Positions 1-60,940 of a stretch of 64,000 nucleotides of DNA are shown in pieces. This DNA comes from a virus (taxonomy: Duplodnaviria > Caudoviricetes), in the IMG/VR virus record IMGVR_UViG_2671180879_000003, positions 3,799 to 67,798 of that record. One strand, given 5' to 3'. Made by a program: the position numbers and the translations under genes. Under the pieces are notes generated by a model that was given only the letters and a program-made list of their open reading frames with translations, did no database searches and had not been told where the DNA came from. Numbering within the stretch: position 1 is the stretch's first letter; each line of letters begins with the position of its first letter.

Positions 1-260
1 AAATCCGCCTGTTTCTAAATTATACTTAGGTGCTTCACCATTAGAAACTATTTCTCCAGTCCATCCAAATTTATCTTTTAAAGTCTGTGCTGCATTGTTA
101 ACTTTATCTTTTCCTGTAAATCCACCTGTTTCTAAATTGTATTTAAGTGAATCATCATTAGAAACTATTTGTCCATTCCATCCAAATTTATCTTTTAAAA
201 CTTGAGCTTCTTTTTCAACTCTATCTCTTCCTATAAATCCACCTGTTTCTACTCTATATA
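1..260. repeat. 117-nt coding repeats (ETGGF...LKDKFGW), likely cell-wall-binding modules
   Basis: aaatcc(a/g)cctgtttcta recurs at 1, 118 and 235. Confidence 0.8.
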
Positions 261-789
261 CAGGAATCTTAACTTGATCTGGAATAATTCTTCCATATCC
301 TAAAAAGTGTTGTCTCCAGTAACTATTATTTATCTCAGTTATACAAACTCCTCTAGTGCTACTAGCTTGTATAAATTGATGATCATTGATAACTATACCT
401 ATATGTGATGGATAATTAGCTCCTCCATATGTACCTTTAAAGAATATTAAATCTCCAGGTTGTGGATTTGAAACCTTTCTTATATTTGAATTGCTCCAGT
501 AACCTGCTACATTAGTTCTAGATAAACCATATCCATTGTGATTAAATACATAATAAATGAATCCACTACAGTCAAATGAGTTTGGTCCAGTAGCTCCCCA
601 TACATATGGCTTTCCTATTTGTTGTTTTGCAAAATTAATTATTTGTTGTGCGCTAGCCTGAGATCTTGCATTATATGCGAATCTAGTAGAATCATCTCTG
701 CTTTCTGGCTGATTAGCAAAAGTTAATTGAGTTGTAAGCGAGACAGATATAACTGTAGTACCCAAAATAGCTAAAATTCTTTTATTCAT
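1..789 (-). CDS. Secreted NlpC/P60 (C40) peptidoglycan endopeptidase with C-terminal 39-aa repeats; runs off window
   Basis: Manual translation: signal peptide MNKRILAILGTT, GKPYVWGATGPNSFDCSG, SHIGI; AGGAGG RBS; absent from the ORF track because truncated. Confidence 0.88.
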   Translation of the reverse strand, partial: MNKRILAILGTTVISVSLTTQLTFANQPESRDDSTRFAYNARSQASAQQIINFAKQQIGKPYVWGATGPNSFDCSGFIYYVFNHNGYGLSRTNVAGYWSNSNIRKVSNPQPGDLIFFKGTYGGANYPSHIGIVINDHQFIQASSTRGVCITEINNSYWRQHFLGYGRIIPDQVKIPVYRVETGGFIGRDRVEKEAQVLKDKFGWNGQIVSNDDSLKYNLETGGFTGKDKVNNAAQTLKDKFGWTGEIVSNGEAPKYNLETGGF

Positions 790-915
790 ATAAAAGTCCT
801 CCTTTTTGATGTAATTGTTTTTGACATCATTTAAACATAGTTTAACATATGTTTCCATTTTTTACCACAAAATTTTCCATTTTTTTACAATATTCTTTAT
901 ATAATATTTATTTAA

Positions 916-955
916 ATAAAAAAACACCCAAAGTGATTTGGGTGTTTTTTTTATT
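916..955. terminator. Bidirectional intrinsic terminator
   Basis: A-tract, cacccaaa-gtga-tttgggtg, T-tract. Confidence 0.75.
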
Positions 956-1180
956 CTAATTTAATTGCCATTTACTCTCTAACTCTAATTAATCAACTAA
1001 TAATCCTGCTCCTACTTCTAATATAGAAGTTACTATAATTGATGTTCCTAATACTATTATTATAGATAAATCCTCATTGATTGATTTATTTTATTTAGTA
1101 AAGTTATTATATATGCTCAATCTAAAAAATCTTGCATAAACTTTAAACATTCTTTACATTTTTTATAAAAATACTTAAAT

Positions 1181-1216
1181 AAAAAAGAAGTACCTGTTGG
1201 CTTTGGTACTTCTTTT
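1181..1216 (-). terminator. Terminator after endolysin
   Basis: aaaagaagtacc...ggtacttctttt inverted repeat. Confidence 0.7.
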
Positions 1217-1322
1217 ACTAGTTAATAGGTCTAGTAACTACTGAATTTTACAGCTACAGTTAGCTGGTTGAATGTCTAATTGAATGTAGTATATCCAATT
1301 TACTTAATTAAATTATAACATA

Positions 1323-2105
1323 TTATATTAATTCTAAAAAAGTACAATTTACATATCCAAGACCTTTATTGCCATTAAATCCTTCTATACTTATCCATCC
1401 ATTTAAGCAATATTGTAAATTAACTATATCACCGTTTTTAACTTGTCCTATAACATTGTATTGAGTCCCTCTATCATATCTTACATTTAAAACATCTGCT
1501 ATAACTCTTGCTTTTCTTCCTAAATAATCTCCGTTTTTAAATCCTTCATTTGAAGTTGTATTAGAAGATTCTTTCCAAGGAACTCCATTAAATTTACATA
1601 TTCCTTTTGCAATTGCTTTAGCGAATCTATCTTTATTATTCATTATTAAATTATAATCTTCTTCATTAGTTATAAAGCCTAACTCAACTAAACAAGCATC
1701 CATGTTAGTTTCTCTTATAACATGTAAACTACCCTCCTTAACACCTCTATTTTTAGTGTAAAGTCCTTCTCTAATAATTTCAGAATGTATAGCATCAGCT
1801 AAAGGTCTATACTTAAATTTATAGCAATAAGTTTCTAATCCTTGAGCCTTTAGATTATCGGAACTATTGCAATGTATAGATACGAAAGAATTTACTCTTA
1901 AGCTATTAGCTTTATTACTTCTTTCATTTAAAGTTACAAATACATCTGTAGTTCTAGTATTTATATTTTTTATATCTTGTGTTTTTAAATACTCATTTAT
2001 TTTATTTGATACCTCTAAAACTATATCTTTTTCTAAGCACCCATGTAACCCTGGAGCTCCTGAATCATATCCCCCATGTCCTGCATCTATCATATTTGTT
2101 TTCAT
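1323..2105 (-). CDS. Endolysin, N-acetylmuramoyl-L-alanine amidase (Amidase_3) plus SH3b
   Basis: DAGHGG, SIHCN, LVELGFITN motifs; C-terminal LNVR SH3b. Confidence 0.93.
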   Translation of the reverse strand: MKTNMIDAGHGGYDSGAPGLHGCLEKDIVLEVSNKINEYLKTQDIKNINTRTTDVFVTLNERSNKANSLRVNSFVSIHCNSSDNLKAQGLETYCYKFKYRPLADAIHSEIIREGLYTKNRGVKEGSLHVIRETNMDACLVELGFITNEEDYNLIMNNKDRFAKAIAKGICKFNGVPWKESSNTTSNEGFKNGDYLGRKARVIADVLNVRYDRGTQYNVIGQVKNGDIVNLQYCLNGWISIEGFNGNKGLGYVNCTFLELI

Positions 2106-2789: not shown

Positions 2790-5700
2790 CTAAGCAATTT
2801 TACTTTTAAGTTCTTTTACCTGTTCTTCTAATAATTCATTTTTCTCTATAACTTTTTGCAAAGCTGTTGCTAACACATTTGTGTAACTCATATCATCATA
2901 TCCTAATTGTCCAAACTTATTTTTTGTTTGAATAATTCTTCCGATTTCAAATTCGTATAAGTCTTGGGCTATTAAACCTATTCTCATTCTAGTAGTTGCA
3001 TCAATGTTAATGTTGTATCTAAAAGTTGCAGTTTTTAAATGATCTCTTACAAACTCATAACAACTATTTTTAAAACTAGAATTAATATATCTTATATCAT
3101 ATTTTAAATTTCTATCAGAACCTATTACAGCATTGTATATACTTAATCCTTGCATATCTATGTTATTTTCAATATAAAGACTAGTTGTTGCTGAATTTGT
3201 ATTTCTTGCTATTCTATCAACCATCAATCTAGGACCATCTATTGTTACTCCTCCATTTATGTGGAGTTGAGGGTCCCCATTAAAACTTATTATCCTTTTT
3301 TGAAAGTCTTCATGTGGTCCATGTGAAAAATCTATATAAGCAGGTCCTTGAGTTGGACTTCTTAGTTCAAGTCTAGCGTCAGAACTTGTTCTAACATCTG
3401 GTAAAACCTCTAATCCACCTATAATACTTATTAAGCTTCCATTGTTAGGCAACTGTGCTATACGAGCCGTATAATCATTACTAATACCATTTCTAGAGAA
3501 ATCTATATAACATAAATTGCCTTGATTTGCATTTATCTCTATACCTTTATCTCCATCTCCAGTAAATTGGATAGGGTTTTGCGGTCCAAATACTTTAAGC
3601 CCCCACACATTCAACCAACCTGTAGGATCCATGCTAAAACATTTTAAATTTTGATGATTATATAACTCTATAGCACCGTTACGAATTATAAATTTACCAT
3701 TACTATTTTGAACATTACCAGTTATATTGTTAAATGCCATTTCTACACTTTTAGGGTTTTGAGCTATTATAGATGAAACATCTCCTGCACTTACTTTATT
3801 AACTATTTGATTAGCTTTAAGTGTTATAGAAGCAGTATCTTCTGTTGAGTTAGTCCAATCTAAATTACGCTTAAATAATCCTTTAAGTAGAATTACATCT
3901 TCTATATGAATTAAACTTCCATACTCTTGACTAGCTCCATTGTGCCATAGTGAAAATTTATAGTAAGCTGTACTATTAACTTTAAAGTTAAACCTATATA
4001 CACCCCTGCTTTTTAAATTAATTGATGTATATACAACATTATCGTTCCTATCTTGTATAGTTACTCTAAATCCATTTAAAACATTAGACTGTATTTCTGT
4101 GCAATTAATTTGTATTGTATAATCAACATTTCCTTCTAATGCTACATCTTGACTAAATCTAATTCCCATATTACTTTTATTTACAAATGAAAATCCTTTT
4201 TTTACACTTGAGTCTGTAGTACATGTTCTTATGGATAAATTCCCGTTTGATACGCCCCACCAATCTATATTATTAAATCCGTTTGAGTTATTTAGCATAT
4301 TTAATTTTGAAGATGAAGCAACTAAATCTATTTGATTTAACTGTTGATTTATCTCCGTTTTTATTATAGATGCTGATTCTGTTATTTTCCCATCCACTTC
4401 ATTTTTTTTATAGAATTGAGAACTTACTGTGCTAATTATAGAAGCATCTGTTATTTTTTGTGCTGCTTCTTTTTTCCAAGTTTCTAAAGATATTATTTTA
4501 TCATTTACAGTAGATTGACTAGTTTCTACATTTGATACTCTACTTGTTATATTGCTTAAGTTTGCTTCTATTGAAGCCACTTTACTTTTAGTAGTAGATA
4601 CATTAGTTTCTGTAGAACTTACTCTAGCTTTTATACTATTTAAATCTCTCTCAACAGTATTTACTTTAGTTTCAACATCATCTATTTTACCAGTAGCACT
4701 ATTAATTTGAGTTGTATGCTTTCCTATAGTACTTTTCATACTATCTACAGTATCTACAGTACGGTTATAATCGTCTTTTAATAGTATTGTTTGTCCATCT
4801 TTTACTATCTGAGTATTATTTATAGCAGTGCTGATTTCCCCTTGCATAACTCCTATAGTTGTACTATTACTTTCAGTTTTCTTTTTAGTCTCATCTGTTT
4901 GTGTTTTTAATGAGTTAAACGCTAAATCTAAAGTTTGGTTAACTTCATCTATTTGTACCTTAGAACTTTTTATAGTTGTAGATCCATTGTTTATCTGAGT
5001 TACAACACTATTAATATTTAGCTTATGACCATCTATGTTAGCATTATCAGAAATCATATCATCTCTTATAATTTTCTCTTTTATACCACTAGATTTAAGT
5101 CCAGTAGCATCAAACATTAAATTTCCCTTAGAATCCCAAACATACATAGTATAGTCATTTTTAGCATCTTTACCTATCTGAACTCTAACTCTGTTAGTAT
5201 CTCTAATCTGAATAGTATTATCTGATATTAAAATATTTCCACTATCAGACGTAATTCTAAACTTATTAGTACTAATATCTCCTGCATTTACTTTAGAAAC
5301 ATCTAAACTAGCTATCATAGCATTTTTAATAAATCCATTTGCTATAGTAAGTTTATCTGAAGTTATTCCTCCAGATTGGATGTTTTCACTAGACAAATTA
5401 CCGTTTACAAGTGTTTCAATTTTATCTACATTAGCTTCCAATACTTGTATAGTTGCATTTACAGCTTCTAATTGAGTTATACTAGCTTTATTAGCTTGTA
5501 AATCATTTATTTGTGCTGAATGAGTAACTGTTAAACTATCTATCTTTGCGACATTCGATGTAAGTGTTCCTATAGTACCTTGAACGGCAGTTAATTGTCC
5601 TGTTATATTTACATCGAAAGCTTCTAAGTTTTCTATTTTAGCATTAACAACAGTTAAATCTGTAATCTTAGCAACACTTGCTTCAAAGTCAGATATTTGA

Positions 5701-23612: not shown

Positions 23613-24296
23613 CTATTTTTTTATTGGTTCATTGAAAGAAGGTGGGTTAATATCCATCTTTGTATTATGATTGTTAGGTCCCGGACTAGATAAGTCAAAG
23701 TATAGTTTAGAGTCTTCAGTAACTCCAAAGTCTCTATTTGAACCTGTATCTTTAATCTTATTTAATGCATCTCTAAATAAAGCATTATGAGCTTCTTCTC
23801 TGTTAAGTAAGAAGTCTATTGTTTCTCTTACATATTTATCGTCAATTTGTCTATATAAATATTCATATACAACTTTTGCTCTTTGCTCTGATGCTATATT
23901 TGATAATAGATCTGCAACTAAGTCTCCTGTTACAGTAACATAATCAGCAGTCCAAGGTGCTCCTGAAGAGTTTATTAAAAATGGTGATAATCCACTTAAT
24001 ACATGAGTTTCTATTTCTCCAAAATCAACTGCTTTATAATCAACATCATGTCCATTTAATAAATTTATTGTTTGAGCAACCATTTCCATATGGCTAAGTT
24101 CTTCCGCTGCTATATCTAGAAATAAATCTTTTATCTCTTTATCTTTTATTCTAAAGCTTTGAGATAAATATTGCATTGCTGCTTTTAACTCTCCATTTCC
24201 TCCTCCTAATTGCTCTTGCATTAAAACTGCATATTGAGGATTTGGTCTTTCTACTTTTACTTCTCTTAACAATTTTTTATCATGTTTAAACATCAA
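23613..24296 (-). CDS. Manganese catalase family protein
   Basis: EQLGGGNGELKAAMQY, EELSHMEM, REEAH motifs. Confidence 0.92.
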   Translation of the reverse strand: MMFKHDKKLLREVKVERPNPQYAVLMQEQLGGGNGELKAAMQYLSQSFRIKDKEIKDLFLDIAAEELSHMEMVAQTINLLNGHDVDYKAVDFGEIETHVLSGLSPFLINSSGAPWTADYVTVTGDLVADLLSNIASEQRAKVVYEYLYRQIDDKYVRETIDFLLNREEAHNALFRDALNKIKDTGSNRDFGVTEDSKLYFDLSSPGPNNHNTKMDINPPSFNEPIKK

Positions 24297-24560: not shown

Positions 24561-24988
24561 TTAAAAATATCTAAAGCTAGTATAAGCTTTATTCATTCTG
24601 TCTTGGTCTATACCTATATAATGTAAGGTTACAGCTGGAGATGAATGGTTAAATATCTTCTGAAGTAATGCTATATCTTTAGTTTGTTTATAGTAATGGT
24701 ATCCCCATGTTTTTCTCATACTATGGGTTCCTAAACAAGGAACATCAAATAATTCTCCATGCTCTTTCTCTAGATATAGGCCTGTTGTAGTTTTTACGTG
24801 ATTTAATTAAAAAATCATTAGTATCCTTGTCCTCTACATAATCTTTAATTGCTCTTTTCATTATTGGGTTTATCTCTATGAATTTTTGTTTCCCTGTTTT
24901 CTTTTCTCTTAAGACTATTTGTCTTTTTTAAATAGGAACACATATTTTCTAATGTATCTAAATTTCTAATAGGTTCTACATAGTTCAT
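24561..24988 (-). pseudogene. Small tyrosine recombinase remnant with internal deletions/frameshifts
   Basis: MNYVEPIR start; C-terminal GTHSMRKTWGY...FNHSSPAVTLHYIG. Confidence 0.8.
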
Positions 24989-29356: not shown

Positions 29357-29625
29357 TTGTAGTTCTCTTTATCTACGTATATAATTAAATTGGAATTTTT
29401 TATTGGGTCTTTCTGGACTCTTTTTTTTTATTTTCATTAAATTAATGTTTTGAAATACTGTGTTTAACAATGTTGCTTGTCCTCTTTTTGCTTATTATAA
29501 GCTTTTAATTCATCAAATTTATTATCTAGTTCTTGTCCTAAATAACTATATTTTTTCATAAAACTTTGAAGTATTTTTATACTCATTTAACTCACTCCTT
29601 GTACAAATTTTCATTGCCAAAGAGC

Positions 29626-29892
29626 CTAAGCTCCTTGTTTATCGTTATATTCTTTAATCGCTATTTCTTTAGCTTCTTCATAACTCAAACCAGTTTCTTC
29701 TAACTCCTTTGTTCTTATCCATATTGGGTAAGCTATACTCAATGCTTCATCCCCATATTTTTCTCTTTGTCTATCAAGTATCCACTTAGCTTTTCTTCTT
29801 TCTATTTCCTCAATCCAATATGGATCTTCTGGGTAAACTACCTCAACTTTTATTTCTCTGCTTTTTCTTGGTGTCATCGCAACCACCCCCAC
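29626..29892 (-). CDS. Small protein, candidate recombination directionality factor (probable start ATG 29877)
   Basis: GGGGGTGG RBS; SpoIIID/sigE-like promoter; last intact ORF before the recombinase. Confidence 0.6.
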   Translation of the reverse strand: MGVVAMTPRKSREIKVEVVYPEDPYWIEEIERRKAKWILDRQREKYGDEALSIAYPIWIRTKELEETGLSYEEAKEIAIKEYNDKQGA

Positions 29893-29895
29893 TAA

Positions 29896-29925
29896 ATTTT
29901 ATGTTTATTGAAAATTGTCCTATGC
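29896..29925 (-). promoter_or_regulatory. SigE-like promoter overlapping SpoIIID box
   Basis: ATA-N17-CATAAAAT with TAGGACAATT (WWRRACARnY). Confidence 0.65.
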
Positions 29926-30614
29926 AATTTATCTTGATTTACTAACTTCTAACTCTACTTTTAAATTATTTCTTGACTTTTTAGTTTTTTATTTGGTATG
30001 ATCATATATTTTTCTAAGGTTATTTTTTAATCACCTCCATGTATATTTAAATATACCTACCAATAAATCGTATGTGTTTTAATTTTCTTTTTTAACTTAT
30101 AAGCCATACAAGTATATAAGGATTATATAACTCACATAAATTAATATTTACTTTAGAAATTACATTTAATCTTGTAGAGTACTTTTACTAATCAATATAA
30201 ATTGAAAATATATAGAAGGAGTTGTAAAAAACTGCGTATTCAAGTACTCGATTCAAAATGAATTCTACTTAATTGTCAAATATTTTATAAGCTTATTCTT
30301 TAAAAAAGTTTGATTAAAAATGTAACTGAATTAACTGAAACTACTTAAAATATTAAGTAATACGAGATATTAAATTTGAATAGTATTAAAAATACAGAAA
30401 ATAATTTAGTAATTGATTTTAAAACAACAATCTAACTTTAATTATCTTACTATTTAAACATTGTCATGCTTTATGATTCTTCATACACTATTAAAAATTT
30501 ATTCCAAGGTACAATTGATACTCCTATACTTGTAATTTATAGATAGATTAAATACTCCTGTCGTAATTATGAATTTATATACTTAAAATTTAATATTAAG
30601 GAGAGTAGAACCTT

Positions 30615-32207
30615 ATGATTGCTGCAATCTATTCAAGAAAATCAAAATTTACTGGAAAAGGTGAATCTATAGAAAACCAAATACAACTTTGCATGGACTA
30701 TGCTAAGAACCTAGGAGTTAATGAATTTTTAGTATACGAAGATGAAGGTTTTTCTGGTAAATCTATGGATAGACCAAAGTTTAAAGAAATGCTTAAAGAT
30801 GCTAAAGATAAAAAGTTTGATTATTTAATATGTTATAGATTAGATAGAATATCCCGTAATGTTTCTGACTTCTCTACTCTTATAGAAGATCTAAATAAGC
30901 TTAATATATCTTTTGTATCAATTAAAGAACAATTTGATACTAGTACTCCTATGGGACGTGCTATGATGTATATATCATCTGTATTTGCTCAGTTAGAGAG
31001 AGAAACTATAGCTGAACGTGTTAGAGATAATATGTATGAGTTAGCTAGAACAGGAAGATGGCTAGGAGGTATGCCTCCATATGGTTTTATTAGTACTCAA
31101 ATTAACTACTATGATGAAAATATGAACCAAAGAAAAATGTATAAACTTAAAGTTGATGAAGACACAATAGAAATTGTTAAATTAATATTTGATAAATATT
31201 TAGAGCTTAGATCACTTTCAAAGCTTTATAAATATATGTATGAGAATGGAATTAAAGGAACTCGTGGAGGTAACCTTGATCCTAGTGCCTTATCTTTAAT
31301 CCTAAAAAATCCATCATATGTTAAAGCTGATAAAAGTGTAGTTGATTATCTAAGAAAGTCTAATATAGATGTTATGGGAGATATAGATAATATACATGGT
31401 ATCCTAACTTATGCTAAAAATACAGATAGTCCTATAGCTGCTGTTGCTAAACATAAAGGTGTCATAGATTCGGATAAATGGATTGAAGCCCAAAGGTTAC
31501 TTAATGCAAATAAAGCTAAAGCTCCTAGGGCTGGAACTGGGGCTAAGGCATTATTATCAGGTCTTTTAAAATGTTCTAAGTGTGGCTCTAATATGAGAAT
31601 TACTTATAAAAACTCTAAAAGTGGTACTATCTATTATTACATATGTGGAACAAAGAAATCTTTAGGCGTATCAGCTTGTGATTGTAGAAATATCAGATCT
31701 GATAAGGCTGAATCTAAAGTTATAGATGAATTAAAAAATAAAAGTATTAAATCTATAATGTCAAGTTATAAAGATAGCAAGTTAGAAAACTCTAAGAATA
31801 GTAAAAATATAAAAACTGAGATAAACTCAATAAATAATCAAATTAAAGAAAAGGAAACATACATTGATAATTTAGTTATGCAATTAGCCAAGGTTACCGA
31901 AAGCTCTGCATCTACTTTTATAATCAATAAATTAGAATCTTTAAATAATGACTTATCTAATTTAAAATCACAATTAGAATCTTTAAATACTATGTCTATG
32001 GAAAATAAGCAAGTTGATATTAATATAAATATGCTTATAGATAATTTAAATAAATTCAATAAAGAAATTGATACCTCTGATATCAATAAGAAGAGACTGT
32101 TACTATCTACAGTAGTAGATTATATGACATGGGACTCTGATACAGACACAATAAAGGTAAACCTAATAGGTATCAATCCAAGCAATACTATAGCTTCGGA
32201 TAAATAG
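30615..32207 (+). CDS. Large serine recombinase of element 1
   Basis: YSRKS, DEGFSG, RLDRISR, zinc ribbon CSKC, coiled coil; intact 530 aa. Confidence 0.95.
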   Translation: MIAAIYSRKSKFTGKGESIENQIQLCMDYAKNLGVNEFLVYEDEGFSGKSMDRPKFKEMLKDAKDKKFDYLICYRLDRISRNVSDFSTLIEDLNKLNISFVSIKEQFDTSTPMGRAMMYISSVFAQLERETIAERVRDNMYELARTGRWLGGMPPYGFISTQINYYDENMNQRKMYKLKVDEDTIEIVKLIFDKYLELRSLSKLYKYMYENGIKGTRGGNLDPSALSLILKNPSYVKADKSVVDYLRKSNIDVMGDIDNIHGILTYAKNTDSPIAAVAKHKGVIDSDKWIEAQRLLNANKAKAPRAGTGAKALLSGLLKCSKCGSNMRITYKNSKSGTIYYYICGTKKSLGVSACDCRNIRSDKAESKVIDELKNKSIKSIMSSYKDSKLENSKNSKNIKTEINSINNQIKEKETYIDNLVMQLAKVTESSASTFIINKLESLNNDLSNLKSQLESLNTMSMENKQVDININMLIDNLNKFNKEIDTSDINKKRLLLSTVVDYMTWDSDTDTIKVNLIGINPSNTIASDK

Positions 32208-32219
32208 GAACTTTAATAC

Positions 32220-32413
32220 ATTTATCTGAAGCTATTTCTATGTCAGATAAGGTTGCAGTTTTATCCAAACGCCCTGCATCTATAAAAAATATCTATAACA
32301 TAAATTTAAAAATATCAGAAACTAGAACTCCTATAATATCAAGAAGTGCTGAAAATTTTAAAGACTATTTTAATATCTTGTGGAAGGAGATTGATTCTAG
32401 TGAAACAAAATAA
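32220..32413 (+). pseudogene. ytlC: 3' fragment of NitT/TauT ABC ATP-binding gene split by element 1
   Basis: LSEAISMSDKVAVLSKRPASIK...FKDYFNILWKEI, the sequence following the H-loop VTHD; overlaps permease start. Confidence 0.88.
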
Positions 32414-33203
32414 TGTATCACAAGGTCATAAACAATATTTAAAATCGCTAAAAAAAGAAAAGAATCTAATCTTTTTTTATCAAATATTTATATTGGTTGG
32501 ATTTATAGCTCTTTGGGAATTACTTGCTAGACTTAATATAATAGATGTATTTCTATTTAGCAAACCTAGTGATATTTACAATCTTTTTATAAAATATATT
32601 CAAAATGGAGAATTATTTAAGCATATATTAATATCTAGCTATGAGACAATAGTTGGATTAGCAGTTGGTACAATTCTTGGAATATTAGTAGCTATAATGC
32701 TTTGGTGGTCAGAAAGATTGTCTAAAATACTTGATCCATTTTTGGTTGTACTAAATGCACTTCCTAAAACAGCATTAGCACCAATTTTAATAGTTTGGGC
32801 TGGAGCTGGTGTAAATGGAATAATAGTTATAGCTATTACTATATCTGTTGTTGTTACTATATTATCCGCCTATAATTATTTTATAAGTGTTGATGAGGAA
32901 AAAGTCAAAATGCTTAAAAGTTTTGGAGCATCAAAACTTCAAATTCTTACAAAATTAATATTTCCTTCTAACATAGGAAATTTAATAAATTTAACTAAAA
33001 TTAATATAGGTATGGCTTGGGTTGGCGTAATAGTAGGTGAATTCTTAGTATCTAGATATGGTCTTGGGTACTTAATAGTTTATGGTGGCCAAGTTTTCAA
33101 ATTAGATTTAGTAATGATGGGAGTAATAGTGTTAGCCCTTTGTGCTTTAATTATGTATCAAGTTTTAAATATAGCAGAAAAAATTTATAAAAGTAAAAGA
33201 TAA
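32400..33203 (+). CDS. ytlD: NitT/TauT ABC transporter permease
   Basis: LNALPKTALAP, GMAWVGVIVGEFL; GTG at 32400 with AAGGAG RBS. Confidence 0.9.
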   Translation: MKQNNVSQGHKQYLKSLKKEKNLIFFYQIFILVGFIALWELLARLNIIDVFLFSKPSDIYNLFIKYIQNGELFKHILISSYETIVGLAVGTILGILVAIMLWWSERLSKILDPFLVVLNALPKTALAPILIVWAGAGVNGIIVIAITISVVVTILSAYNYFISVDEEKVKMLKSFGASKLQILTKLIFPSNIGNLINLTKINIGMAWVGVIVGEFLVSRYGLGYLIVYGGQVFKLDLVMMGVIVLALCALIMYQVLNIAEKIYKSKR

Positions 33204-34254: not shown

Positions 34255-34812
34255 GTGATTTTTTTGCTAAAAAAATTAATAACATTAATAACTTTAATTA
34301 CTAGCCTATCTTTGCTTCTCATTGGATGTACTCCTAAATCTCAAAGTATTAAATCTAAAAATTTAAATAAGCTAACTGTTGCAGAGGTAACCCATTCAGT
34401 ATTTTATGCTCCACAATATGCAGCTATAACTCAAGGTTTTTTTGAGGAAGAGGGCATTGAGTTAGACCTTATAAATACTCAGGGAGCAGATAAAACAATG
34501 GCTGCACTTCTTTCTGGAGAAGCAGATATAGGACTTATGGGACCAGAAGCATCTATTTATGTATATAATAAAGGAAATTCAAATTATGCAGTAAATTTTG
34601 CTCAATTAACTCAAAAAGATGGAAGCTTTTTAGTTGCTCGTGAAAATACTGATAGTTTTTCTTTTGAGGATTTAAAAGGTAAAGAGGTTTTAGGTGGTAG
34701 AAAAGGTGGGGTTCCTGAAATGACATTAGAGTATGTTATGAAAAAAAATGGTCTAACTATAGGAACTGATACTCAAAACGGTAAAGTAAACGTTAGAACC
34801 GATATTCAATAA
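34255..34812 (+). pseudogene. ytlA: 5' fragment of NitT/TauT substrate-binding lipoprotein split by element 2
   Basis: Lipobox LIGC, AEVTHSVFYAPQY, NFAQLTQKDGSFL; stops abruptly at VRTDIQ (185 aa, about half length) beside phage DNA. Confidence 0.88.
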
Positions 34813-34867
34813 TCAGTTTTATTATAACAGTTAATTTTTAGAATAGTATTTTAGAAATATTAAGATA

Positions 34868-34934
34868 AAATTTTCATTAATACTATAAAAAACAGAAATA
34901 AGATAAAGTTTTAGGGTATCTTATTTCTGTTTTT
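34868..34934 (-). terminator. Long inverted repeat/terminator after endolysin
   Basis: aaaaacagaaataagata...tatcttatttctgttttt at about 34887-34934. Confidence 0.65.
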
Positions 34935-35003
34935 ATCATGAAAATTAGTATCTAATCAAAATTTAATTTAAAACAATATTTTATAGTAAAATTTTTACTA
35001 AGT

Positions 35004-35780
35004 TTATACTAATTCAAGATACTTAGAGCTAACATATCCTAGACCCTTATTACCGTTAAACCCTTCTATACTTACCCATCCATTTAAACAATACTGTAAA
35101 TTCACTATATCTCCATATTTAACTTGTCCTATTACCTCATACTCTGTACCTCTATCCCATCTAACATTTAAAACATCTGCAATTACTCTAGCTTTTCTTC
35201 CTGAGTAATCTCCATTTGTAAATCCTTCGTCTACAATTCCAGTTTCTTTCCATTCAACTGAATTAAATTTACAAATTCCTTTTGCTATAGCTTTAGCAAA
35301 TTTATCTTTATTGTTCATTATTAAATTATAGTCTTCCTCATTAGTTATGAATCCTAACTCAACTAAACAAGCATCCATCTTAGTCTCTCTAACTACGTGT
35401 AGGTTACCTTCCTTTACACCTCTATTTTTAGTGTAAAGACCTTCTTGTATTAACTCTGAGTGTATAATGTCTGCTAAAGCTCTATATGCAAATTTATAGC
35501 AATAAGTTTCTACCCCTTGAGCACTTGGATTGTCAGAGCTGTTACAGTGTATTGATACAAATGAGTTTACCCCTAATTTATTAGCTTCATTAGTTCTATC
35601 ATTTAACGTCACAAATACATCTGTAGTTCGAGTATTTAAATTTTCTATATTTTGATTTTTTAAGTACTTAGCTACTCTATTAGATACATCTAATACTATA
35701 TCCTTTTCTAAGCATCCATGTACTCCTGGTGCTCCAGAATCATATCCTCCATGTCCTGGATCTGTCATATTTTTTTTCAT
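35004..35780 (-). CDS. Endolysin, Amidase_3 plus SH3b
   Basis: DPGHGG, SIHCN, LVELGFITN; close paralogue of 1323..2105. Confidence 0.93.
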   Translation of the reverse strand: MKKNMTDPGHGGYDSGAPGVHGCLEKDIVLDVSNRVAKYLKNQNIENLNTRTTDVFVTLNDRTNEANKLGVNSFVSIHCNSSDNPSAQGVETYCYKFAYRALADIIHSELIQEGLYTKNRGVKEGNLHVVRETKMDACLVELGFITNEEDYNLIMNNKDKFAKAIAKGICKFNSVEWKETGIVDEGFTNGDYSGRKARVIADVLNVRWDRGTEYEVIGQVKYGDIVNLQYCLNGWVSIEGFNGNKGLGYVSSKYLELV

Positions 35781-60626: not shown

Positions 60627-60654
60627 AATTTATTTAAAATTAAGCTTGTCCTAA
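60627..60654 (-). promoter_or_regulatory. SpoIIID box with sigE-like -10 before yqaJ
   Basis: TAGGACAAGC, then AATAAATT at the same spacing as the other two sites. Confidence 0.5.
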
Positions 60655-60670
60655 TTTGTATGTATAGCTA

Positions 60671-60850
60671 CTATTTTTTAGTAGCTAACTTACCTTCTTT
60701 GTATAACCTTTTTGCTATTCTATAATTAATCTTTGCTATTCTGTCAAGGATTGCCTGAATTTCTTCATCTGTTTGCTTTCTTCCAAGCCTCACTTCTGGA
60801 GAAATTATTTCTATTATCGCATTTTCAGTTTCTACCTTATAAATATCCAT
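60671..60850 (-). CDS. 59-aa protein, candidate recombination directionality factor
   Basis: MDIYKVETENAIIEIISPEVRLGRKQTDEEIQAILDRIAKINYRIAKRL (manual translation); G-rich RBS; directly upstream of yqaJ. Confidence 0.65.
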   Translation of the reverse strand: MDIYKVETENAIIEIISPEVRLGRKQTDEEIQAILDRIAKINYRIAKRLYKEGKLATKK

Positions 60851-60871
60851 AATGTAATCCCCCCTTTATAA

Positions 60872-60901
60872 TTTATATGAATTATAAAAATTGTCCTATT
60901 C
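60872..60901 (-). promoter_or_regulatory. SigE-like promoter overlapping SpoIIID box
   Basis: ATA-N17-CATATAAA with TAGGACAATT. Confidence 0.62.
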
Positions 60902-60940
60902 AACACTATTTCTATGTAAATATGAAAAAGATTAATATAT

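Follow-up and report, generated by a model that had tools for sequence, protein, structure and literature searches.

Excision by a large serine recombinase (LSR) together with a recombination directionality factor (RDF) under sporulation control is known from few elements, those of the skin, SPbeta, vfbin, gin and yin types. Here, we compare these systems with a locus in a 64,000-nucleotide stretch of DNA (the window; positions 3,799 to 67,798 of the IMG/VR virus record IMGVR_UViG_2671180879_000003), in which an open reading frame (ORF) of 83 amino acids (aa), ORF83, follows a predicted sigma-E promoter and lies 0.7 kb from the recombinase gene LSR1 at the right end of a decayed prophage designated element 1. 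The window has about 28% G+C, comes from a 67.8-kb provirus record and contains two prophages; the protein names point to Paeniclostridium sordellii as the host. The comparison suggests that ORF83 may be the directionality factor of LSR1, made in the mother cell.

In the skin element of Clostridioides difficile, the recombinase CD1231 is constitutive and the RDF CD1234 depends on sigma-E and SpoIIID, whereby excision is confined to the mother cell (PMC5025042, in excerpt). ORF83 and CD1234 are both small acidic proteins (83 aa, isoelectric point (pI) 5.1, and 72 aa, pI 5.5) encoded a few genes from an LSR, and both genes have a promoter of the sigma-E type, a leader of 13 nucleotides (nt; predicted, at about this length, for ORF83) and a RACAAG box directly after the -35 ATA. 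The lengths differ, and CD1234 is without database relatives according to its authors (PMC5025042); the two are likened by description and promoter. The SpoIIID box proposed by the authors for CD1234 is at -46, whereas the SpoIIID-like box of ORF83 is inside the promoter. The target in C. difficile is sigK, whereas here it is the gene of an ATP-binding cassette (ABC) ATPase, and element 1, unlike the C. difficile skin, is a recognisable remnant of a siphovirus-type prophage. The CD1234 promoter string had no match in IMG/VR. The excision of the Bacillus subtilis skin is likewise controlled by sigma-E and SpoIIID (PMC517825); there, however, the recombinase gene spoIVCA itself is regulated, whereas here, as in C. 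difficile, a small accessory gene carries the sporulation promoter.

The SprB/SprA system of the B. subtilis prophage SPbeta (PMC4191935, PMC5499854) resembles the locus in that the RDF gene is located in an early phage operon and has its own upstream mother-cell promoter, that excision rejoins a split host gene and that the recombinase, SprA, is constitutive. The mother-cell transcript of sprB starts 20 nt before the start codon, and the gene is also read through upon mitomycin C induction (PMC4191935, in excerpt). In contrast, the proteins are unrelated, the hosts belong to different branches of the phylum, and the sprB promoter was assigned to sigma-E or sigma-K with an imperfect -35 element and no defined SpoIIID box reported. 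In the Clostridium botulinum yin element, the RDF candidate HEQ52_18460 is also small and acidic (53 aa, pI 4.9) and is encoded behind a predicted sporulation-sigma promoter in a gene-splitting LSR element; unlike here, the predicted promoter is of the sigma-K type, the target is yabG and the element is reported to be unique to one strain (PMC10747680, in excerpt for both points). Verified RDFs have no common fold and bind the junction of DBD2 and the coiled coil, and most of them add a beta strand to DBD2 (PMC12286644, in excerpt). Alongside this precedent, counted in favour of an RDF, stands the N-terminal IKVEVVYP segment of the ORF83 model, which is unstructured and precedes three helices.

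A match to the promoter was also found outside the described RDF genes. CD1884 (CD630_18840) of C. difficile 630 has an almost identical sigma-E-dependent promoter (ATAGGACAATTTT-N7-CATAAAAT) with a mapped transcription start, but is annotated as a conserved hypothetical protein only. In the literature mentioning CD1884, it appears solely as a gene of unknown role, and no link to recombination was found there. The CD1884-like 93-aa protein in IMG/VR is encoded about 5 kb from a divergent serine recombinase of 504 aa and belongs to the family of ORF59, a second small protein encoded in the window; the IMG/VR loci were equated with CD1884 by promoter identity, not by a named record.

The features of the ORF83 locus are as follows:
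29896..29927, minus strand: predicted sigma-E-type promoter with an embedded SpoIIID-like box, assigned by near-identity to the mapped CD1884 sigma-E promoter
29923..29921, minus strand: -35 element ATA, from sequence
29922..29913, minus strand: SpoIIID-like box TAGGACAATT, which starts inside the -35 element, from sequence
29903..29896, minus strand: -10 element CATAAAAT, at a 17-nt spacer from ATA, from sequence
29890..29883, minus strand: strong ribosome-binding site (RBS) GGGGGTGG at the start of the leader of about 13 nt, from sequence
29626..29877, minus strand: ORF83, 83 aa, pI 5.1, candidate RDF of LSR1, with the ATG at 29877 and the stop codon at 29628..29626; assigned by relatives and conservation
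30615..32207, plus strand: LSR1, an intact 530-aa large serine recombinase in which Resolvase, Recombinase and Zn_ribbon_recom domains were recognised, oriented divergently to ORF83; assigned by domain matches

An earlier note on this DNA had read ATA-N17-CATAAAAT, overlapped by TAGGACAATT, directly before an ORF of about 83 aa, and this observation was confirmed (minus-strand sequence of the region: AAATTGCATAGGACAATTTTCAATAAACATAAAATTTAGTGGGGGTGGTTGCGATG). P. sordellii and C. difficile are members of one family. The sigma-E promoters of C. difficile have a -35 ATA, and a CATA-type -10 is common to sigma-E and sigma-K (PMC3789822, in excerpt); ATA-N17-CATAAAAT combines the ATA with a CATA-type -10 at a spacer within the 16–17 nt of sigma-E promoters. 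The CD1884 promoter TTGAGAATAGGACAATTTTTAAGATACATAAAATATAAAG, whose transcription start is mapped 15 nt before the start codon and whose expression ratio of sigE mutant to wild type is 0.11/0.03 (PMC7438776 Tables S6, S2), has as its counterpart in element 1 TTGCATAGGACAATTTTCAATAAACATAAAAT, with the same ATA-N17-CATAAAAT geometry and the same ATAGGACAATTTT-N7-(A)CATAAAAT. The promoter of the validated skin RDF gene CD1234 shows a 13-nt leader, ATA-N17-CATA and AGACAAG directly after ATA (PMC7438776 Tables S6, S2), and the spacing of the ORF83 promoter equals that of both. By this geometry and by near-identity to the mapped promoter, the sigma-E reading of the earlier note is supported, and the ORF83 promoter is very probably sigma-E-dependent. 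The transcription start would then lie close to 29890, on the first G of the RBS, and a GTG-start form of ORF83 with 88 aa was rejected because its start would precede this position. A sigma-K promoter was also rejected, as AC lies just 13 nt before CATA.

SpoIIID sites were judged by sequence match to the B. subtilis site TAGGACAAGC; WWRRACAR-Y is an alternative SpoIIID consensus. The suggestion that TAGGACAATT fits the SpoIIID consensus agrees with its identity to the high-affinity B. subtilis site TAGGACAAGC at 8 of 10 positions (PMC11180830, in excerpt). This match, together with a second GGACAAG box downstream of the gene that was not forced by the search, is the ground on which an involvement of SpoIIID at the ORF83 promoter appears reasonably probable.

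Chance was assessed with 100 shuffles of the window for each motif. A chance motif in front of a chance ORF might be expected at about 28% G+C, and TAGGACAA alone is indeed weak evidence because it is only mildly enriched: 8 copies were found against 2.99 expected, one shuffle in 100 reached 8, all eight copies lie on the minus, purine-rich coding strand and five of them are inside coding sequence. The composite ATAGGACAA-N11-CATA, in contrast, occurs twice against 0.01 expected, and 0/100 shuffles reached 2. Together with the purifying selection on ORF83, its 20 profile matches and the spacing controls given below, which refute chance, this leaves the explanation with a practically negligible probability.

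An ordinary early or middle phage promoter, recognized by sigma-A with a phage or host activator that binds GGACAA and unrelated to sporulation, was considered as well. The hexamers TTGCAT and TAAAAT are present, the box is conserved among phages and could be the site of a phage regulator, and contigs of RNA libraries cross the predicted start. However, a distance of 20 nt between the hexamers is too wide for sigma-A, and no site was reported here by the sigma-70 scan; in sigE mutants, the near-identical CD1884 promoter loses 89–97% of its expression. Moreover, no regulator is common to the nine small-ORF families and varied immunity regions described below, and the true switch region of the fuller sister copies of element 1 lacks TAGGACAA. 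A promoter of this kind is therefore quite improbable. As for the RNA data, the four runs were assembled contigs, whose cover is uninformative on transcript starts or on a sigma-E promoter; the contigs of X15, X17 and X19 extend across the predicted ORF83 start to 29961-29982, which fits read-through or DNA carry-over.

The conservation of ORF83 was then compared with that of its surroundings. IMG/VR holds 18 sister copies of the locus at 98–99% identity, at the same chromosomal site in the six loci examined. ORF83 is intact in 19/19 copies, and its variable sites are 3 nonsynonymous and 6 synonymous; it is under purifying selection inside an element with split capsid, protease and terminase genes. 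The promoter is nearly unchanged in the 18 sister loci, though DNA farther upstream differs: about 85 nt before the ATG are kept in all copies, and beyond them at least three unrelated contexts occur. The fuller sister copies carry genes of an ImmA-like protease, an XRE repressor and a Bro-N antirepressor between LSR1 and ORF83. LSR1 is located divergently within 6 kb of ORF83 in 17 of the 18 sister loci, at a distance of 0.6 to more than 5 kb. Thus, since these 85 nt are conserved while the upstream and intervening DNA changes, the promoter and ORF83 travel as a unit and stay with LSR1.

Relatives of ORF83 numbered 9 proteins in a word-indexed search and 20 in a profile search of 1.84 billion representatives, and one exact variant is recorded on 204 contigs. 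The nearest relatives of LSR1, at 96% identity and in a cluster of 107 members, bear the name Paraclostridium/Paeniclostridium sordellii. In C. difficile, the homologues of ORF83 (CZR97304.1, 58% identity) and of LSR1 (CZR97305.1, 62%) have consecutive accessions. The metagenome contig L039 encodes an LSR (36..1730, minus strand) that is 58% identical to LSR1 and, 130 nt apart, a divergent 65-aa ORF83 relative (1860..2057), preceded by TAGTAACAAGG and TGTAACACAAT, which resemble the C. difficile-type box. Another locus, L090, combines an 88-aa member of the ORF83 family with an LSR 75% identical to LSR1 over the part present in the record. ORF83 relatives thus adjoin LSR1-clade recombinases in three lineages. 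The locus scan was run with subset A4 of the ORF83 alignment, as the broad alignment A3 was too diverse; the single hit in the scan of genome contigs (L001) was discarded as a chance match inside a TPR protein.

The second copy of the composite motif in the window, at 60899..60876, belongs to prophage 2, which extends from 35004 to the window end, appears intact and ends in a second recombinase. Its order is cro-like gene, promoter, ORF59, hairpin, TAGGACAAGC box and RecE-like gene, with the following features:
60871..60903, minus strand: second promoter copy TTGAATAGGACAATTTTTATAATTCATATAAAT, assigned by the composite motif
60671..60850, minus strand: ORF59, 59 aa, candidate RDF of LSR2, in the family of the CD1884-like 93-aa protein; assigned by the pairing of family and LSR
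60685..60667, minus strand: stop-spanning hairpin of ORF59, before the TAGGACAAGC box, from sequence
60644..60653, minus strand: TAGGACAAGC, identical to the SpoIIID site at 10/10 positions and located 19 nt past the stop codon of ORF59, from sequence
62462..64000, plus strand: LSR2, large serine recombinase, 25% identical to LSR1, which runs past the window end; assigned by comparison

An exact scan of IMG/VR with ATAGGACAATTTT-N7-CATA recovered 64 loci. In 56 of them, CATA is followed by a purine-rich RBS and an ORF of 54–93 aa that starts 14–35 nt after it, and in 8 no such ORF was found. With an N8 spacing, such an ORF followed none of 5 loci. With N6, none of 22 loci had an ORF within 35 nt; these were mostly two families of matches inside coding sequence, and two loci had ORFs of 32–33 aa 54 and 86 nt away. 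This contrast, 56/64 against 0/27 for N6 and N8 together, counts against a chance motif. Among the 56 ORFs, 27 sequences are distinct, and BLASTP sorts them into 9 clusters, all without a Pfam family: the ORF83 family, the ORF59 family, a Cellulosilyticum-named family, an uncultured Clostridium family and five more. The ORF59 family includes a 67-aa protein from a third P. sordellii prophage and the 93-aa protein behind the CD1884-identical promoter. The cassette has to date been seen in P. sordellii, C. difficile, a Cellulosilyticum and uncultured Clostridium, and it also occurs in records rated 81–100% complete by CheckV. A literature search on mother-cell or sigma-E-dependent prophage excision by serine recombinases in Clostridioides found no description of this cassette.

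A search with ORF59-family proteins alone gave 20 loci, all 20 with the motif and with the seven spacer bases variable. A divergent LSR was present at the record end in 19 of them, and the remaining record starts 2.3 kb upstream. Six of 10 further records have a divergent LSR 1–6 kb upstream; the other four extend at most 4 kb upstream and contain no tyrosine integrase either. The LSR1 clade (58–99% identity among its members) pairs with the ORF83 family, the LSR2 clade (54–91%) with the ORF59 family, and a third clade (62–84% within, 37–48% to LSR1) with the family of L066/L084/L091; in L068, both the enzyme type and the ORF are distinct. The CD1884-like protein, which is the most divergent of the small proteins (35% identity), is paired with the most divergent LSR2-clade enzyme. 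By these sequence comparisons, the small-ORF family follows the LSR clade, as expected of cognate LSR-RDF pairs. The variable DNA between the LSR and the small ORF argues for function, short of proof.

A real sigma-E promoter could also serve small proteins other than RDFs, that is, mother-cell phage factors which modulate, for example, sporulation, repressor or antirepressor activity, or LSR stability. The sigma-E-dependent CD1884, which has no assigned function, and the lack of a Pfam match in all nine families speak for this. We nevertheless regard it as unlikely: the family follows the LSR clade over three clades and 13 recombinases while the intervening immunity region varies, and the size (54–93 aa), acidity (pI 5.1 for ORF83) and position of the proteins resemble those of CD1234, SprB and the yin candidate. 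ORF83, for its part, is located in the same element as its recombinase and co-varies with it, as is expected of an RDF. The RDF reading of the earlier note thus gained comparative support from adjacency to the LSR1 clade in three lineages and from co-variation of family and clade over nine families, and an RDF function of ORF83 appears likely.

The region behind the small ORFs was also similar among families. Within 10–98 nt past the small-ORF stop, GGACAA(G) was found on the same strand in 23 of the 27 distinct loci and in 8/9 families; this position was not forced by the search. Among the exceptions, one locus has the box at +479 only and three have none. In the 700 nt upstream, GGACAA(G) occurs in 4/27 loci. 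The downstream box is usually situated just before the RBS of the next gene, often after a stop-enclosing hairpin (judged by eye). At ORF83, the corresponding features are:
29618..29637, minus strand: hairpin CAAGGAGC-TTAG-GCTCTTTG enclosing the ORF83 stop codon, from sequence
29597..29604, minus strand: GTACAAGG, a GGACAAG variant with one mismatch, 22 nt after the ORF83 stop and just before the next RBS, from sequence
29464..29586, minus strand: ORF40, conserved downstream partner of ORF83, assigned by conservation and a fusion relative
29540..29532, minus strand: TAGGACAAG inside ORF40, from sequence
29484..29475, minus strand: GAGGACAAGC inside ORF40, from sequence

The sequence TAGGACAAGA at 29540..29531 matches TAGGACAAGC at 9 of 10 positions. 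Because the nine families share no phage regulator, SpoIIID, a host protein that binds such a site as a monomer, is the simplest candidate, and the downstream GGACAAG boxes may be SpoIIID roadblocks.

These boxes bear on a further explanation, sporulation-coupled induction, in which the sigma-E promoter would switch on the early lytic operon as a whole in the mother cell, the small ORF would merely be the first gene of the operon, whether RDF or not, and intact prophages would replicate in an already doomed cell. The interrupted genes are not sporulation genes, the cassette is found in the records of 81–100% completeness mentioned above, and in the apparently intact prophage 2 it heads the early operon, directly preceded by the cro-like gene and followed by RecE/RecT and the replication genes. 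However, in 8/9 families the small ORF is separated from the next gene by a conserved GGACAAG box, often accompanied by a hairpin, and this arrangement is stop-like rather than read-through-like; the sprB sporulation transcript in SPbeta is monocistronic (PMC4191935, in excerpt); and element 1 retains the cassette despite its broken structural genes. Induction of this kind thus has a low probability.

The target of element 1 was defined from the following features:
32208..32240, plus strand: attR, with the element/host junction at 32222/32223; assigned by empty-site contigs of X19 and X15
32240..32413, plus strand: 3' fragment, beyond the H-loop, of the ABC-transporter ATPase gene that the element interrupts; assigned by domain and junction
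32346-33203: permease gene, which follows the ATPase fragment

Contigs of X19 and X15 match the window from 32223 rightward and carry ...TTAGTTACCCATGATA to the left of it. The empty-site contigs join ...GTTACCCATGATA to 32223, and their read-through LVTHDISEAISMSDK is an intact ATPase H-loop region; therefore, the element/host junction is precise and an empty site exists. The host ORF is thus interrupted in a manner restorable by precise excision at 32222/32223 (read-through THDISEAISMSDK). In X15, an attR-type contig (depth 58.8) and an empty-site contig (43.8) were both present, which may reflect two strains or excision. The comparison with skin in the earlier note accordingly stands in its logic, but not in its target, which is the ABC-transporter ATPase gene and not sigK.

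Taken together, the balance of the comparative evidence leans slightly towards the complete proposal, in which ORF83 would be the directionality factor of LSR1 and would be made in the mother cell under sigma-E and SpoIIID. According to this proposal, sigma-E RNA polymerase would read ATA-N17-CATAAAAT as ORF83's own mother-cell promoter, SpoIIID would probably assist from the TAGGACAATT box, and transcription would begin about 13 nt before the ATG. ORF83 would accumulate in sporulating cells, in the mother cell only, and would bind LSR1, made from its own promoter, switching it to attL x attR recombination. Excision of the defective prophage would restore the reading frame of the ABC-transporter ATPase gene at 32222/32223, while the spore would retain the integrated copy. 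The GGACAAG boxes after the gene may act as SpoIIID roadblocks that keep mother-cell transcription from the downstream phage genes. In the less decayed sisters, where ORF83 is also part of the early lytic operon behind the repressor, ImmA-like protease and Bro-N antirepressor, it would also be made by read-through upon induction, as is sprB of SPbeta.

Several points weigh against this proposal. The tentative C. difficile SpoIIID consensus KRTAACARK (PMC5025042, in excerpt) is matched by the box at 7/9 positions only, and the SpoIIID transcriptome in Table S10 of PMC3789822 contains neither CD1884 nor CD1234. That table is not sensitive, because CD1234 is SpoIIID-dependent by quantitative reverse-transcription PCR and yet is missing there; Table S11 of PMC3789822 likewise lists neither gene. 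Neither PF00005 nor junction words revealed the attL site, with the ATPase gene's 5' half, in the 67.8-kb record, and it was missing from 5 sister records as well; this copy can only be presumed competent for excision. The interrupted ABC-transporter ATPase gene has no known sporulation role, and the benefit of its restoration in the mother cell is not evident. The sister locus L014 has no LSR within 6 kb, and four of the nine small-ORF families are without a recombinase in their fragment records (at most 4 kb upstream, with no tyrosine integrase either). Two genes 1–6 kb apart in one module can co-vary through linkage alone. Finally, the RDF assignment is one from context, because the protein itself offers no family, fold or look-alike. 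ORF83 has no Pfam or PHROG family, and Pfam gave nothing for 24 family members at E up to 1, the Xis/excisionase helix-turn-helix (HTH) families (HTH_17 and relatives) included. A tblastn search of 50,697 phage records with ORF83 gave no match, the ESM Atlas gave no usable look-alike, and hhalign detected no similarity between the ORF83 family and ORF59 (probability 0.1%). The AlphaFold2 model of ORF83 (pLDDT 74.6) has three helices behind an unstructured N-terminus (the IKVEVVYP segment), and a Foldseek search with it returned nothing from the PDB at E <= 0.001.

A wider reading of the cassette is possible, and we put it forward tentatively. LSR prophages of Clostridia might share a portable general switch by which they make their own, mutually unrelated directionality factors in the mother cell only. 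Such a switch would combine a sigma-E -35 ATA, to which a SpoIIID box is fused, with a CATA -10 at a 17-nt spacer, a short leader, the small ORF, a hairpin spanning the stop codon and another GGACAAG box, with SpoIIID acting twice, as co-activator of the promoter and as roadblock after the gene. Many apparently intact prophages might then leave the mother-cell chromosome at each sporulation, and the nine small-ORF families might be nine new RDF families with known partners. If this were true, the logic of skin and SPbeta would recur in many Clostridia prophages in the form of a single recognisable cis-regulatory cassette, also where the prophage is intact or inserted outside sporulation genes, and mother-cell excision would be a strategy common among phages instead of a rare case of domestication. 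CD1884, a sigma-E-dependent orphan of C. difficile 630, would gain a testable function; the SpoIIID site would become definable outside Bacillus; and up to nine candidate RDF families would be paired with recombinases, such pairs being wanted as reversible genome-engineering tools.

The remainder of element 1 confirmed the remark that ORF83 survives amid degraded neighbours. The element begins before the window start and runs to 32207. Endolysin, tail and tape-measure genes are present, and each of the genes for major head, protease and large terminase is broken into two. Remnants of a tyrosine integrase are located at 24561-24988. The immunity genes are deleted in the window copy and are still present in sister copies. 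At 29973-30030, two divergent sigma-70-like sites overlap around the common palindrome TATGATCATA, TTGACT-18-TATGAT on the plus strand (10/12 matches) and TTAAAA-18-TATGAT on the minus strand; the pair is probably a leftover of the old genetic switch after the deletion of the immunity genes. As a promoter candidate, the weak minus-strand sigma-70-like site at 30030..30001 (9/12 matches) was rejected, being within shuffle expectation (7 found against 9.8 expected).

Element 1 also carries a gene of a CotJC-like Mn-catalase (23613-24296, minus strand; Pfam E = 2.7e-58), which is 96–99% identical across the sister copies examined. Mn catalases are spore-coat proteins in C. difficile (PMC3789822, in excerpt), and the gene may be sporulation-related cargo. 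Downstream of ORF83, a fusion of ORF83 and ORF40 homologues was found in a 134-aa protein (P0005), and L090 also has an ORF40-like gene downstream; the two proteins may work together. Many LSR1 relatives of about 60% identity and 689–719 aa (P0022-P0046, P0079, P0094) are fused to an XRE-type HTH domain (PF01381/PF12844), so that recombinase and repressor-like domain form a single protein. Stop-enclosing hairpins before the downstream box were seen by eye in several unrelated families (L047, L051, L063, L072, L090 and L098). Single P. sordellii provirus records (L050/L051, L069/L083, L082/L092 and others) contain two or three different cassette prophages, of the 83-, 59- and 67-aa types, each with its own serine recombinase.

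Next to prophage 2, the substrate-binding-protein gene at 34255-34812 is truncated at 185 aa in every strain looked at, and right after ...TTCAATAATCAGTTTTAT the strains diverge fully (window 34780-35010; L002, L018, L019). The pattern suggests that the same transporter locus contains another attachment site for a recombinase, which prophage 2 fills here and different DNA fills elsewhere.

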